Virus genome (UHGV): UHGV-0145877
Reading direction: 5' to 3' (one strand)
DNA from: a virus
Length of the DNA: 25,947 bases
Shown: piece after piece, positions 461 through 24,699 of the stretch
Layout: every line of letters starts with the position of its first letter
Numbering within the stretch: position 1 is the first letter of the stretch
Program-made: the position numbers and the translations under genes
Notes under the pieces: generated by a model
The model's database searches: none
What the model saw: only the letters and a program-made list of their open reading frames with translations
Told to the model about the DNA's origin: nothing

Positions 461-1660
461 ATGGTCGTGAGCGTTTTTATGTTTGACTTGACGTTTATTA
501 TCTTTATTTTATCTTCCATCCCTGTATTTTTTGTTTTTTGGATTGCCGGAAGGTTTAAGAATGAATTAGTTGCAGACTCTTCTTTTGGATTGCGAGGTGA
601 TGACAATTTATCTTGCCTCAGGGGGTTGGCGGCTGTCATGGTCGCCCTTCACCATTCAGTATATATGTTCAATTATCTTTATCATGATAAATGGAGTATA
701 TTTTTGAATGATGGATTTGCGGCGAAGTCAAGCAACAATAGTTTATTGGCCATTGCATATTTTGGCTCCATTCCAGTCATGATATTCTTTATGATTACAG
801 GGTTTCTCTTCTTTAGAAAAATAATAAACAAACCAATAAACAATGCTGCAATATTTTTGTCGGCGCGAGTTAAGAGACTAATTCCAATGTATGCATTCAT
901 GGTGCTTTGCGTTGTTTGTGTTTCTGAATTAATTCGACCCAACGATAGCATTGGGATTCACAACATTATTGTTGAAGTTGGCCGATATTTTACGTTTGGT
1001 ATAATTGACCCTAATGGCCTTACACCTTCTATTCATGGATCTTTAATCGTTGGCGGGGTTATCTGGACTCTTGCATATGAGTGGGGTTTTTATATAATTT
1101 TACCATATATCTCTATGTTCGTAAAATCAATAAGAGATGCATGTTTTTCGGTAATAATTATGCTTTTCTCGGTATTAATTGCTTACCGCCAAGAGCTTAT
1201 CAGTGAAATGTTTGCCACTCTTCTCTTTTGCTTTATTGGTGGCTTTGTTGCAGCGCTAGCTTCTGGTTACCTAAAGAACAACGCTATCAAACAAGCCAAT
1301 AGCGTAATGATGACAATTGTGTACCTTTTATCGCTTATTGCTGTCGCATACTGGCAGGACTTTAACATTTACAATGTTTACATAGTGATTCCGCTATTTT
1401 TGTTTTTTTTAAGTGCGTGTACTGGCTCCAAAGCTTTTCAAATTATAAACACCAAGTTCTTCAAGGTGGCGGGTTCTGTAAGTTACAGCATTTATTTGAT
1501 GCATGGCTTAAGCATGGTAATGACCTTTAATTTCATTTCAAGCTCATTAAACTATACTGAGTTTGCAGCAATATCTTTATCAATTTGTGCAATGATAAGT
1601 TGCTTAACTTACTTATACATTGAAAAACCCGCAATGAAAAAACAGTTTAAAAACAATTAG
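461..1660 (+). CDS. Acyltransferase family 3 integral membrane protein (O-antigen or other surface polysaccharide acetyltransferase-like)
   Basis: 399-aa, highly hydrophobic, multi-helix ORF with an N-terminal motif LRGLAAVMVALHH typical of acyltransferase-3 enzymes. Strongly AT-rich relative to the phage structural genes and on the opposite strand. True start may be the ATG at 479 (MFDLT...). Confidence 0.7.
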   Translation: MVVSVFMFDLTFIIFILSSIPVFFVFWIAGRFKNELVADSSFGLRGDDNLSCLRGLAAVMVALHHSVYMFNYLYHDKWSIFLNDGFAAKSSNNSLLAIAYFGSIPVMIFFMITGFLFFRKIINKPINNAAIFLSARVKRLIPMYAFMVLCVVCVSELIRPNDSIGIHNIIVEVGRYFTFGIIDPNGLTPSIHGSLIVGGVIWTLAYEWGFYIILPYISMFVKSIRDACFSVIIMLFSVLIAYRQELISEMFATLLFCFIGGFVAALASGYLKNNAIKQANSVMMTIVYLLSLIAVAYWQDFNIYNVYIVIPLFLFFLSACTGSKAFQIINTKFFKVAGSVSYSIYLMHGLSMVMTFNFISSSLNYTEFAAISLSICAMISCLTYLYIEKPAMKKQFKNN

Positions 1661-4708: not shown

Positions 4709-5061
4709 TACGCCTCCGATGTAACAGTCGTTATTCCATAGAGAGTGTCGATTTCAGCGGAAAACATGACACGTCGGGTCGTGGTATCCACCGTCGTATT
4801 GAAAGAGAGGATTGATTTAACGCCCCGCGTTTCGAGGATGCGCTTACGGACGGCCAGGTTGTAGGTTTCCGGCTTCTGCTTACCGAGTACGGACTGGATC
4901 CACGGAGTCCCCTCGGTGGTGTCGAGAAACCATTGCCCATACCACAATTCGAATCGCGTTTTTACCGCCTGTGCCACGGCATCCGGTGAGTTAATCAGCC
5001 AGGTGTCATCACCGCTGCCAAAGGTGTAATCGCCATCGGCGTCTTCACGTCTGTATCGCAT
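4708..5061 (-). CDS. Baseplate wedge protein (gpW / gp25-like)
   Basis: 117-aa ORF between the spike and J-like genes, overlapping both by 1 nt. Confidence 0.5.
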   Translation of the reverse strand: MRYRREDADGDYTFGSGDDTWLINSPDAVAQAVKTRFELWYGQWFLDTTEGTPWIQSVLGKQKPETYNLAVRKRILETRGVKSILSFNTTVDTTTRRVMFSAEIDTLYGITTVTSEA

Positions 5062-5813
5062 CAGTTTACCCCGTCGGTACTGCTTCCACCGCGCTGAACA
5101 CCACCATGAGTGTGCGTATTATCGATTGGCTTGCCGTTAGCCTTCACGCTACCCAAAAACTCAACAACACCAGTGATTTTTGAAGCCACACCAGAAACAA
5201 CAGACCCCACCATGCCCCCCATCCAGGTTAACAGGCCATGAATGGTTACTTTCTCAGAAAAATCAGCCAGAGGGGCAACCACATCAAGACCACCCGGAGC
5301 GACAATTTTAATTTTCCTGGTATCAGGATTAAGCTCAAAATAGGTGCTGCCATCGTCACTACGCAACTGTGTGGCACTGGTATTAATACCGCTAATCTTC
5401 CTCGCCTGCGACTGGGGGCCTACAATACAAAACGCATCCGATAAATCATGCATTCTGTCATCGACCGGTTCCTGTATTCCGCCGCTCTGCCACCAGAAAT
5501 CAATACAACGATCGGCAAAAACGACAAGACACTCATCCCCGGCTTTAATCGGAAACGTTAGCGTACATCCTCCGCCACGTGGGAATACCACTGGAACATC
5601 CACCAGCAATGGGTAATTTTTGGTAATGCGGTTGCCGTCATTATCCTTTTCAACCGAACGGATAGCAGGCTGCACAACCGCCGTCACCGCATCAGGATCG
5701 AATGACTGAATAATGCCAGGCAAGGCGACTCGGATCTGATTCTTTGTTGTTTCCCGTTCAGATTTGAATGTTTCGGCAAGGTCGCCGCTGCGGGTCTGGT
5801 CAGATACTGCCAT
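5061..5813 (-). CDS. Baseplate spike / assembly protein V-like
   Basis: Probable start is the ATG at 5813 (MAVSDQ...) with a GGAG Shine-Dalgarno 8 nt upstream; the ORF-track start at 5834 is a TTG inside the terminator A-tract. Gly-rich C-terminus typical of spike proteins. Confidence 0.6.
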   Translation of the reverse strand: MAVSDQTRSGDLAETFKSERETTKNQIRVALPGIIQSFDPDAVTAVVQPAIRSVEKDNDGNRITKNYPLLVDVPVVFPRGGGCTLTFPIKAGDECLVVFADRCIDFWWQSGGIQEPVDDRMHDLSDAFCIVGPQSQARKISGINTSATQLRSDDGSTYFELNPDTRKIKIVAPGGLDVVAPLADFSEKVTIHGLLTWMGGMVGSVVSGVASKITGVVEFLGSVKANGKPIDNTHTHGGVQRGGSSTDGVN

Positions 5814-5832
5814 TTGGTAGGCTCCAGAAAGC

Positions 5833-5861
5833 AAAAAACCCGCCGAATGGCGGGTTTTGTT
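5833..5861. terminator. Rho-independent terminator (bidirectional; strong on the minus strand)
   Basis: aaaaaa cccgcc gaat ggcggg ttttgtt: 6-bp GC stem (5839-5844 / 5849-5854), 4-nt loop, flanked by an A6 tract and a T-tract. On the minus strand the hairpin is followed by TTTTTT, 20 nt downstream of the stop of the 5878-6273 gene. Confidence 0.75.
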
Positions 5862-5877
5862 AATTCACTGAATGAGT

Positions 5878-6273
5878 TTAAACAGCTTCATCAGTCTTCA
5901 TTTTTTCCCACTGAGAAAAAATAGTCTTAACCTCTAAGAGAGATTGCTGTGCCATTGCTTTATCTATTGCACAGCTAGTGAGGTCATAATCTGCTTCATT
6001 TCGAGCCAGTCTCTGTTGCTCAAGTTTGTAAGCCATGGATTTTAGGCTTAATGGATCATATGGCTCCAGTTTGTTTTCACTCTTATTTTTAAGATAAGAG
6101 ATAAGACTGGAATGATGATCCTTCGTATAAGCAGGAAGACTGGTCAGATTCTCTTTTATTTCATGGTAAAGCGCATAATATGCCCGCGAAATAGTATTAC
6201 GATAACCAACTTCAGAATCCTCCGCAAAGCAACGCTCCGCTGAAGATAAAAACTCAGAGCTAGTTATAGGCAT
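5878..6273 (-). CDS. Hypothetical helical protein, possibly HEPN-like (second gene of the AT-rich cassette)
   Basis: 131-aa ORF overlapping the upstream gene by 14 nt and followed by a strong terminator. Helix-forming sequence with SRAYYALYHEIKENL, HHSSLISYL and RLARNEADYDL segments that resemble the helical layout of HEPN-type domains. Not confirmed. Confidence 0.6.
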   Translation of the reverse strand: MPITSSEFLSSAERCFAEDSEVGYRNTISRAYYALYHEIKENLTSLPAYTKDHHSSLISYLKNKSENKLEPYDPLSLKSMAYKLEQQRLARNEADYDLTSCAIDKAMAQQSLLEVKTIFSQWEKMKTDEAV

Positions 6274-7030
6274 ATTTACACCCTTTCAAGCTATTTCTTT
6301 CAACGGAAAAACGTGCAATAAGATTGCAATCATCAAGTAAATCGATTGAACAAATTTCATCTGCAAGTCGCATATTCATTGCAACCACCTGTTCAGGGGA
6401 TGCATTAACTACCTCAACCAGATAAGTCCCACCAGATGCACCGTTGATGTCAGCACGATATTCAGTTGGAGGGAATTCAGCCATGACTCTATGAACAGCA
6501 AGAGCAACTTGCATGTATTGTTCTGAAGAGCATCCTGACTTTTTGTATGCTTCATCCATATCGTGAATTACCTCCTGCAAGAAGGCTTCTGCGTCATCCC
6601 TATGTTCTTCTTGGGATAACATTTTGCAATGACGTCCAAAATATTCTACGCATTTTGATAGTTTCCCTACCAAATACGCAACGCCACCAGCCCTATAAGT
6701 AAACCACTTGGTTGGATACTTATCAGCTAAAGAATAGATGTAGTAGTCCGATTTTTCGAGTAGAGAAAAACGCTCAAGCAGCTTACAAAAAATCCGCGCA
6801 AAGTTAACATCAGCATGTGGGAGGATAGCTTCAAGCATTTCAATCCCGACACTCACATCACCTTTAGCAATATGAGCCAAAGCTACAAGCGTGTCAGCAG
6901 GCGGAGTACGCTTAGAGCCATACTCCGAGACCACCTCTCGAAAGGTCCAAATATCAAGAGGTTGACCACTATTGATTATCTTAACCAACTGGTCAAAACG
7001 CTCTTCCGCTTTCAGTTTTGGTCTTGCCAC
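6260..7030 (-). CDS. Hypothetical protein (first gene of the AT-rich cassette), function unknown
   Basis: 256-aa soluble ORF with a GTG start at 7030 and no in-frame ATG upstream. Preceded by a sigma70-like promoter. AT-rich versus the flanking baseplate genes. No motif I can assign. Confidence 0.6.
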   Translation of the reverse strand: MARPKLKAEERFDQLVKIINSGQPLDIWTFREVVSEYGSKRTPPADTLVALAHIAKGDVSVGIEMLEAILPHADVNFARIFCKLLERFSLLEKSDYYIYSLADKYPTKWFTYRAGGVAYLVGKLSKCVEYFGRHCKMLSQEEHRDDAEAFLQEVIHDMDEAYKKSGCSSEQYMQVALAVHRVMAEFPPTEYRADINGASGGTYLVEVVNASPEQVVAMNMRLADEICSIDLLDDCNLIARFSVERNSLKGCKYAYN

Positions 7031-7059
7031 AGTACGCTCGCTACTTATCTTTTGGTTGA

Positions 7060-7089
7060 ATTTTATGTTCGCGTATACAGTTTAGTCAA
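7060..7089 (-). promoter_or_regulatory. Candidate sigma70 promoter for the 6260-7030 / 5878-6273 cassette
   Basis: Minus strand reads TTGACT (7089-7084), an 18-nt spacer, then TAAAAT (7065-7060), about 30 nt upstream of the GTG start at 7030. Confidence 0.45.
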
Positions 7090-7126
7090 TCCGAAGCTCG
7101 TGCTGTTGAGCCGTTTCGCACAAAAT

Positions 7127-7145
7127 CATCCTTGCAAAAAGGATG
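7127..7145 (-). terminator. Candidate intrinsic terminator after the secreted-protein gene
   Basis: catcctt gcaaa aaggatg: 7-bp stem, 5-nt loop. On the minus strand it lies immediately after the stop at 7151 and is followed by ATTTTGTG. Confidence 0.4.
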
Positions 7146-7150
7146 GGACT

Positions 7151-7492
7151 TCAACCATCAACCTTTTTACACGGGAAAGATCCGATGATTTTCGGTGCAT
7201 CCATGCTGTTCTGCAGAAGCTGGACGTTCAGGAAACGCGTTTCGGTGCCAGGGCGACGAATGTATTCAAAGCCATAATTGTTGCCATCTTTAGCAGGCAT
7301 AAGCCCCATATCAATCTTAATGCCATCAGCACCAAGATTTGTAATTTTCTGCGATGTGACGCGTTCACCGTTAATCATGTCCATTTCACCCAACCTTGCA
7401 GTGATGGTGTAAGGCCCACAATAAGCGGTGTACCCGCTTGCTGATGCCCCAAATGACATAAAGGCAACAATTAAAATGGCTAAGGCTTTCAA
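7151..7492 (-). CDS. Small secreted (periplasmic) protein with an N-terminal signal peptide; accessory gene
   Basis: 113-aa ORF; MKALAILIVAFMSFGASA-SG is a classic Sec signal peptide with an A-S-A cleavage motif. Begins 2 nt after the baseplate hub gene ends. Somewhat AT-richer than its neighbours. Confidence 0.6.
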   Translation of the reverse strand: MKALAILIVAFMSFGASASGYTAYCGPYTITARLGEMDMINGERVTSQKITNLGADGIKIDMGLMPAKDGNNYGFEYIRRPGTETRFLNVQLLQNSMDAPKIIGSFPCKKVDG

Positions 7493-7494
7493 AT

Positions 7495-23869: not shown

Positions 23870-24358
23870 TTAATAGCCATCAGAAGTAATCGCTACAGAT
23901 TTCAATCCCTCAATGTCATCCTTGGACAGGGCGAACCATTCACCGTGCTTTCTCTTTGCGGCAAATTTGCGATGAAGCATGTTTTCAGTTTCTCTTCCAC
24001 CAGGGATCAGGCACTCAAGCTTCAAGCAGTCTGGTCCAGAGTTGCCAAGCGATTTGATGCGTTGTGGAATGTTGGATGAATACCCAATTTTGGTTAGCCC
24101 AGTTTTCTTCGATGACAAAACGTATACCTGAGGAGGTTCTTTTCTCTGGTCTTCCATTACACGTCTCATTGTTGCCATAAGTCCGCCGTGCATCAGCATT
24201 TCAACAAAGAACGCTGACCGAACACCTGACGACTTAAGCATGCCAGAAAATTCACTTGCCAATTCCATTAACTCTGCGATGTTTTCAGGAACTTTTTGGC
24301 AGTTATCTTCCTTGTATAAGGAAATCATTCTTTGAAGCTTTTCTTCTAATTGGTTCAT
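23870..24358 (-). CDS. T5orf172-like (GIY-YIG-like) domain protein
   Basis: C-terminal region VYVLSSKKTGLTKIGYSSNIPQRIKSL...HRKFAAKRKHGEWFALSKDDI resembles the T5orf172 domain. Probable start is the ATG at 24358 (AAGG Shine-Dalgarno); the ORF track extends to a GTG at 24514 with no Shine-Dalgarno. Confidence 0.5.
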   Translation of the reverse strand: MNQLEEKLQRMISLYKEDNCQKVPENIAELMELASEFSGMLKSSGVRSAFFVEMLMHGGLMATMRRVMEDQRKEPPQVYVLSSKKTGLTKIGYSSNIPQRIKSLGNSGPDCLKLECLIPGGRETENMLHRKFAAKRKHGEWFALSKDDIEGLKSVAITSDGY

Positions 24359-24699
24359 AGCGTCTTTACCTTTTAGAAAGTGAGCCTGTCTCACAGAAAA
24401 GCCGCCCGAGAGAGGTTGCCACCTATAACGGCATTTCTCAGGCTCACTTACTGAAAGGCTCTCGTTAATATGCGCGTGAGATGCGCGGTTTACTGCAGAT
24501 GTAAAAAGCCCCACAAATGCGAGGCTAAATCCTGGTATTTGTAATGACTGGCTCTTATCTCAACGCGGCCCCTTACCGCGCGCCAGATGCTCAATCTCAA
24601 GCATCAGCAATGAGATGTTTAATCTGGATTCACTCCAGAAGTGATCACCACCCTGTCTACAGAGCCAGATGTGAAGGATGATGAGTAAAATTATCGCTA

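Follow-up and report, generated by a model that had tools for sequence, protein, structure and literature searches.

A HEPN-fold protein and its TPR-like partner encoded by overlapping genes at a variable site of an Escherichia coli prophage

The virus genome UHGV-0145877, a 25,947-nt stretch of DNA that is called the window at its full length here, is the late (virion) region of an Escherichia coli prophage of the Mu/SfV/SEN34 type. Two overlapping genes on its minus strand, encoding proteins of 256 and 131 amino acids (aa), lie between the genes for the baseplate hub and the spike. A preliminary description made from the sequence had likened the 131-aa protein to a HEPN-type helical domain. 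This locus raises the question of whether the 131-aa protein belongs to the HEPN superfamily and, if so, what such a protein and its partner would do in a prophage. We found the HEPN fold, in a branch with a variant active site, and a pairing with the partner that recurs across temperate phages. For the function we give an even chance to a prophage-borne, toxin-antitoxin-like module for abortive infection or superinfection exclusion, in which a minimal HEPN ribonuclease (RNase) would be neutralised by the C-terminal domain of the partner, perhaps with sensing through the TPR array of that protein.

Fold and active site of the 131-aa protein

Single-sequence searches with the 131-aa protein gave nothing in NCBIfam and a match to AF0298 in the PDB that was not significant (E 0.31), and PHROGs assigned the protein to phrog_5176, annotated as function unknown. 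Ten close relatives (71-99% identity), one of which (73% identical) has a precomputed PF05168 match, were combined with it into a close-family profile (11 sequences) that was still marginal against the PDB (2hsb, E 0.022). A HMMER search of 1.84 billion representative proteins with the close-relative profile recovered 788 relatives at E <= 1e-3, and nearly all of the best 150 of these are ~95-165 aa long. Conservation was read from an alignment of 110 relatives with 24-77% identity. PF05168 was matched by 57 of the 110 at E <= 0.01, and the profile built from all 110 matched the solved HEPN structures 9xbd (E 3.4e-13), 9xbc (E 4.8e-12) and AF0298/2hsb (E 1.4e-8). The relatives are labelled "UPF0332 family" or "HEPN domain-containing protein" in their sources. 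The 131-aa protein itself has the up-down four-helix core of the superfamily, in which an insert separates core helices 2 and 3; TT1696, SsR10, ST0689, Dfer_2879, Roquin, LsoA, TTHA0636 and HepT are named in the evidence for the fold, as are the sacsin HEPN domain, Csx1/Csm6 and AbiA. Because the relatives match PF05168 and the family profile matches solved HEPN proteins, the 131-aa protein has a HEPN fold, as firmly as computation allows. The 110-sequence profile also weakly matches "Retron-Kva2 HEPN" (36ht_I, E 0.048), in the region of helices 1 and 2 only.

The usual place of the Rx4-6H motif in HEPN proteins is the end of core helix 3 (Anantharaman et al. 2013, PMC3710099). The model of the 131-aa protein places helix 2 at residues 21-43, the insert helix at 53-65 and core helix 3 at 74-96, and at the corresponding site (Table 1) R91 is present and the histidine position is taken by D95/Y96. 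AF0298-like HEPN-T proteins likewise keep the motif arginine, have D in place of the histidine and carry a second conserved histidine in the insert between helices 2 and 3; this residue was proposed to complete an alternative active site, and such families are predicted to be still active (PMC3710099). Since AF0298-like and AbiV families are known to deviate in this way (PMC3710099), the absence of the motif histidine does not exclude membership of the superfamily, and catalysis stays predicted.

Across the 110 relatives R25, Y32, Y33, R91 and Y96 are invariant, and E21, R30, H37, H54, L84 and D95 are conserved in at least 90%. At the R91 site, AF0298 reads R..SDY and 9xbd RNRSDY in the alignment, and H54 aligns with a histidine of AF0298 (SKTHRG) and of 9xbd (FSSHSA). 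With its invariant R91, replaced motif histidine and H54 at the start of the insert helix, the protein has the features of the AF0298-like HEPN-T subgroup and belongs to the histidine-poor branch of the AF0298-like HEPN-T/UPF0332/PF05168 clade. Support for its membership of PF05168 itself is transitive only, via the family profile, and H54 is, from the alignment, a candidate alternative catalytic histidine.

The segments that had been picked out from the sequence, ISRAYYALYHEIKENL (residues 28-43), HHSSLISYL (53-61) and RLARNEADYDL (88-98), are all present and correspond to the conserved blocks of the family. The R-x6-H spacing noted in the first of them is real (R30...H37, within helix 2) and belongs to a family motif, but it is not the canonical catalytic motif, whose site is R91-N-E-A-D95-Y96. 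The recognition of the domain was thus right and the assignment of its motif wrong, as R30/H37 lie off the canonical site. The residues proposed for mutagenesis also need renumbering: residue 29 is S and residue 36 is Y, so that R29/H36 should read R30/H37, and residue 99 is T and residue 105 is K, so that R99/Y105 should read R91 (or R88) and Y96.

A HEPN protein that lacks the canonical histidine might be catalytically inactive and bind RNA or a nucleotide; together with its TPR partner it might then regulate, act as a sponge or serve the phage as an anti-defence factor. Nucleotide binding was the property first ascribed to the fold, and there are examples of HEPN domains without activity (PMC3710099). 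We consider this reading rather improbable for the 131-aa protein, as the invariant R25, R91, Y32, Y33 and Y96 and the near-invariant E21, R30, H37, H54 and D95 point to a conserved polar site and not to upkeep of the fold, and activity through alternative residues has been predicted for such families (PMC3710099).

The partner and the recurrence of the pair

The model of the 256-aa partner (phrog_17809) was confident (predicted local distance difference test score, 86) and consists of paired helices at residues 8-136 that form a TPR-like array, two long helices and a beta-beta-alpha-beta unit at 190-243. The protein had no match in Pfam, NCBIfam or PADLOC, and no Pfam family was found with its C-terminal domain alone or with divergent partners. 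A MazE-like match (E 0.24) and a match to kinesin light chain were discounted, since they reflect helical or TPR composition only, and a fold search of BFVD gave two uninformative full-length matches, one unnamed and one with the generic label "type 4 fimbrial biogenesis". Among 14 aligned divergent partners there was no invariant residue; M218, which lies in a C-terminal "MN..LA[DE]" helix, is the only one to come close. The lack of a match to an enzyme family together with the near-absence of invariant residues argues for a binding protein rather than an enzyme. In addition, the partners diverge faster than the HEPN proteins, with identities to the window pair of 39 vs 49%, 24 vs 43%, 23 vs 37% and 22 vs 32% (partner vs HEPN), as is expected of an antitoxin or a sensor.

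These features bear on whether the genes form a standard type VII HEPN/minimal nucleotidyltransferase module of the HepT/MntA kind, in which the partner would nucleotidylate a conserved tyrosine. The nearest clade (PF05168, AF0298-like) usually occurs together with minimal nucleotidyltransferases (PMC3710099), and Y96 is invariant. The equivalent tyrosine is mutated to phenylalanine in the solved homologue 9xbc, so the depositors evidently considered that residue important. The minimal nucleotidyltransferase motif (hG[GS]x9-13[DE]h[DE]h), sought in the adjacent partner as G[GS]-x9-13-[DE]-x-[DE], was not found, in keeping with the preliminary description, which had seen no GS-x(9-13)-DxD motif in the 256-aa protein and had concluded that the pair is not a standard HEPN/nucleotidyltransferase module. 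Given a partner that lacks this motif and has the conservation of a binding protein, we regard this alternative as essentially refuted.

The two genes have the anatomy of a transcription unit of their own (Table 1). The 14-nt overlap and a Shine-Dalgarno-like AAAGGGTG upstream of the HEPN ATG suggest, from the sequence, that translation of the partner and HEPN genes is coupled, and an overlapping or abutting arrangement is likewise seen in other loci (L002, L003, L004, L008, L012, L018 and L019). The cassette has a G+C content of 39-42%, compared with 50-55% in the flanking baseplate genes. No tandem repeats, inverted repeats or Rfam families were detected in or around the cassette. A type III arrangement with an RNA antitoxin, like that of AbiV, was ruled out because no RNA antitoxin-like repeats or Rfam family were found there.

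A locus search with the close-family alignment gave three loci, and the pair recurs in diverse phages. It occupies the same hub-spike site in Trabulsiella guamensis and, as a divergent allele of 243 and 142 aa, in E. coli CS6L. Elsewhere it lies between lysis genes and the portal gene (Aeromonas caviae), at a prophage edge (Burkholderia plantarii), upstream of the tape-measure gene (Klebsiella phage ST405-OXA48phi1.3), between the tape measure and a DNA-circularisation protein (Pseudomonas phage PG1), between an ogr-like gene and gene A (a Vibrio P2-like phage) and before minor tail genes (Thorsellia). Yersinia pekkanenii has two loci, one in which the pair adjoins virion (portal-like) genes and another in which its neighbour is a Fic-like gene and the 5 kb examined contain no phage genes. 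In every locus named here, a homologous upstream gene encoding 243-310 aa accompanies the HEPN homologue, and a partner hidden Markov model (HMM) detected all of these partners, including that of Thorsellia, which was outside the set used to build it (E 2.9e-14). In ST405-OXA48phi1.3, GenBank splits the HEPN gene into two open reading frames (ORFs) of 43 and 71 aa. A pseudogene was rejected, as the DNA translates into an intact 131-aa ORF, 46% identical to the window protein (L016, 3001-3396; MK416008.1, 19076-19471), and the split is thus an annotation error.

Beside more distant HEPN relatives on metagenomic or archaeal-like contigs (L009, L020 and L021), the partner HMM found no partner; the upstream genes there encode 148-225 aa. 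By eye only, the C-termini of these upstream proteins share a hairpin-helix-strand pattern with the C-terminal domain of the partner, and they may all have a common HEPN-binding domain with variable N-terminal additions. A PF05168-positive protein of Dehalococcoidia (L022) has instead an overlapping 160-aa gene downstream.

The hub-spike junction is present in 336 of 5426 complete E. coli genomes. The cassette described here occurs in 10 genomes and the divergent allele of the same two-gene module occupies the same site in 33; in other E. coli genomes the site carries unrelated small genes. In prophages of the Mu/SfV/SEN34 type, the junction is a cargo site with variable contents. Across the loci compared (~5835-7495 in the window; L004 and L012-L015), at least five contents were seen, including the cassette, the 243- plus 142-aa allele, a DUF4282 gene and small hypothetical genes of SEN34. 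That only 10 of the 336 related prophages have the cassette argues against a role that the phage requires, and with it against an inactive HEPN protein in the service of the phage. The same distribution bears on whether the two proteins are accessories of tail or baseplate assembly, for instance chaperones, as their position between hub and spike genes on the same strand might suggest. We consider this very unlikely, since most related prophages do not have the pair, since it is low in G+C and has its own terminator, and since it stands elsewhere among lysis and terminase genes, between head genes, by replication genes and, in one case, where no phage genes were seen across the stretch examined.

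Proposed function and genomic setting

Collectively, the pair is a conserved overlapping two-gene operon with a mobile, patchy distribution at phage accessory sites, the arrangement of toxin-antitoxin and abortive-infection genes. In the reading that we propose, the two genes form a stand-alone accessory unit (a "moron") lodged between the hub and spike genes. The 131-aa protein would dimerise as other HEPN proteins do, and its RNase site would be formed by R91 and Y96 (end of helix 3) and H54 (insert helix), possibly aided by R30/H37 and E21/R25 (helix 2). The partner would be non-enzymatic, with a C-terminal alpha/beta domain that binds the HEPN protein and keeps it inactive in the manner of an antitoxin, and with a fast-evolving TPR-like array that recognises a protein of an invading phage. 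Infection would titrate, displace or degrade the partner and so release the RNase, which would stop translation; the outcome would be abortive infection or superinfection exclusion to the benefit of the lysogen. The RNase activity, its toxicity, the neutralisation by the partner, the sensing and the role in defence are suggested by analogy, because of the known HEPN toxins and of the prophage HEPN defences HepS and Tha/Ith. More tentatively, and short of an even chance, the pair may represent an undescribed two-component anti-phage family in temperate phages of Gamma- and Betaproteobacteria, combining a TPR-like cage and sensor with a HEPN RNase that has an R/H/Y site without the motif histidine. 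If so, the divergent alleles that are swapped at the hub-spike site would have different trigger specificities.

Several points weigh against the proposed module. The 131-aa protein alone had no PF05168 match in Pfam at E <= 1, and its only PADLOC match was to HEPN_IX (E 0.009), as for its relatives. With the canonical histidine absent, activity rests on the 2013 structural prediction for AF0298-like proteins, and HEPN domains can be non-catalytic binders (PMC3710099). The promoter-like site upstream of the partner gene is a bare consensus match, and such sites are no commoner in the region than in shuffled sequences. Because the cassette runs in the same direction as the late operon, its expression might be confined to late lytic growth; this orientation also makes lytic read-through possible, as would suit an inactive protein that serves the phage. 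Finally, no experiment on this HEPN clade or on the partner family was found in the literature.

We also weighed a plain addiction-type toxin-antitoxin pair, in which a HEPN toxin and a labile protein antitoxin would stabilise the prophage or persist as a selfish cassette, with no sensing of phage by the TPR array. The order of the genes (partner upstream, HEPN downstream), their overlapping frames, the strict co-occurrence and patchy mobile distribution, the Yersinia locus whose examined stretch lacks phage genes and the known HEPN toxins of type II and type VII systems (PMC3710099) would all fit such a pair. Nevertheless, a 256-aa partner with a TPR-like array of ~130 residues is far larger than neutralisation needs and has no DNA-binding domain for autoregulation, and nearly all loci are in temperate phages at accessory sites, with alleles swapping at one site, as is typical of defence cargo. 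We therefore think an addiction pair unlikely, though credible.

The region from 5700 to 7600 is 99.2% identical to E. coli O127:H6 E2348/69 (NC_011601, 2592518-2594418), in which the genes concerned are all annotated "hypothetical protein". The positions of the cassette and its neighbours are given in Table 1.

Table 1. Positions of the cassette, its signals and conserved codons, and neighbouring genes in the window
Feature	Position	Strand	Remarks
Baseplate hub gene	7495-8556	minus	First in transcription order
113-aa ORF with signal peptide	7151-7492	minus	phrog_3443, function unknown; directly after hub gene
Sigma-70 promoter-like site TTGACT-18-TAAAAT	7060-7089	minus	10/12 consensus positions; ~30 nt upstream of partner GTG
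256-aa partner gene (phrog_17809)	6260-7030	minus	GTG start; upstream of HEPN gene, same strand
Overlap of partner stop and HEPN start	6260-6273	minus	14 nt, from sequence
131-aa HEPN-fold protein gene (phrog_5176)	5878-6273	minus	ORF from ATG to TAA
Codons R30-A-Y-Y-A-L-Y-H37	6163-6186	minus	Helix-2 family motif R[AS]YYxx[YF]H
Codons H53-H54	6112-6117	minus	Start of helix inserted between core helices 2 and 3
Codons R91-N-E-A-D95-Y96	5986-6003	minus	Rx4-6H-equivalent site, C-terminal end of core helix 3; D/Y replaces His
Intrinsic-terminator-like hairpin	5835-5858	minus	10-bp stem, 6 G-C pairs, T-run; 20 nt past HEPN stop
Spike gene	5061-5834	minus	After HEPN gene; followed by gpW-like gene, then baseplate J
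Short tail-fibre gene	2137-2850
Tail-fibre assembly gene	1704-2135

The strong terminator-like hairpin at 5835-5858 stands directly upstream of the spike gene, inside what is expected to be a continuous late tail operon, so late transcription must read through it or the spike gene needs its own promoter. At its N-terminus the product of the 113-aa ORF has an obvious signal peptide, MKALAILIVAFMSFGASASG; a terminator-like hairpin comes after the ORF, at 7145-7127. Related prophages have this ORF whether or not they carry the HEPN pair, and in Trabulsiella and APEC-O117H42 an unrelated protein of 153-154 aa takes its place, the Trabulsiella version having a signal peptide. We rejected the 113-aa ORF as a part of the module, as the same or unrelated secreted proteins are found there both with and without the pair; it looks like a separate moron of the secreted or lipoprotein type. 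Two further genes of the window may be mentioned. On the opposite strand, beyond the tail-fibre assembly gene, 461-1660 (plus) encodes a 399-aa protein of the Acyl_transf_3 family (E 2e-22), whose position and family presumably recall the O-antigen acetyltransferase morons of serotype-converting phages. Upstream of the terminase/portal region, 23870-24514 (minus) encodes a 214-aa protein with T5orf172 and MUG113 (GIY-YIG-like) domains (E 1e-14 and 5e-10), possibly another accessory nuclease gene.

Comparison with known systems

HEPN RNases are recurrent effectors of bacterial immunity, as in Cas13, Csm6, RnlA, PrrC, HepS and Tha. The HEPN superfamily, its AF0298-like HEPN-T/UPF0332 clade and the deviation of that clade from the motif are already known. 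As far as papers and searchable supplements go, the obligate pairing with a TPR-like partner family and its spread as a phage accessory cassette were not found described. No catalogued system in PADLOC-DB v2 (2023 models) was matched by both window proteins, no paper was found that mentions WP_001123212, WP_000113597 or the locus tags, and the DefensePredictor supplements, as far as they are searchable, do not list the window proteins. The R/H/Y alternative site was predicted in 2013; we found no demonstration of it for the AF0298-like clade in the literature.

A HEPN pair in a prophage hotspot would not surprise a specialist, and the site without the motif histidine together with the repeat-type partner makes this pair a worthwhile and easily testable candidate. 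The module would give a tractable E. coli example, in the reference enteropathogenic strain E2348/69, of the AF0298/UPF0332 branch without the motif histidine, for which catalysis is so far only predicted. It would also show a HEPN protein with a repeat-type, probably sensing partner in place of a nucleotidyltransferase, joining minimal toxin-antitoxin-like pairs to the logic of pattern recognition, and would mark the hub-spike junction of Mu/SfV/SEN34-type prophages as a further accessory-gene hotspot that exchanges alleles of the module. Should the protein be inactive or the cassette have no phenotype, the outcome would be the correct annotation of two "hypothetical proteins".

Proteins of the AF0298 (PDB 2hsb)/UPF0332/PF05168 "HEPN-T" clade are typically archaeal or from thermophiles and linked to minimal nucleotidyltransferases (PMC3710099), whereas the subfamily in the window comes from proteobacteria, is carried by phages and has a TPR-like protein as its partner. 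The best solved sequence match, the "HEPN domain-containing protein" of PDB 9xbd/9xbc (125-131 aa), has in common with it SRAYYAMF, the loop histidine and RNRSDYDL, but 9xbd has a tyrosine where the window protein has H37; no paper was found for 9xbd or for HEPN together with UPF0332. In HepT/MntA systems of type VII (e.g. Shewanella SO_3166/SO_3165, PDB 5yep), HepT keeps the canonical Rx4-6H motif, and the nucleotidyltransferase neutralises it by AMPylation, whereas the window HEPN protein is without the motif histidine and its TPR-like partner is probably non-enzymatic. RnlA/RnlB and LsoA/LsoB combine large multidomain toxins with small downstream antitoxins, in contrast to the minimal HEPN protein and larger upstream partner seen here, and DefensePredictor DS-28 (a 163-aa HEPN protein and a hypothetical protein) differs from the window pair in size and gene order.

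The closest functional parallels are HepS of Gifsy-1 (PMC13043305) and Tha/Ith of Staphylococcus aureus phage 80alpha (PMC11087260), prophage HEPN RNases that act as abortive-infection effectors and are triggered by phage tail proteins. Like the window pair, these are accessory HEPN genes of temperate phages; HepS and Tha are expressed in lysogens, and Tha has a separate protein inhibitor. Unlike the window HEPN protein, both have the canonical R...H, and sensing lies within the HEPN protein itself, HepS being a solo tetramer and Tha using its own N-terminal domain. As neither has a sequence relationship to the window pair or a TPR partner, the analogy would be one of function only.
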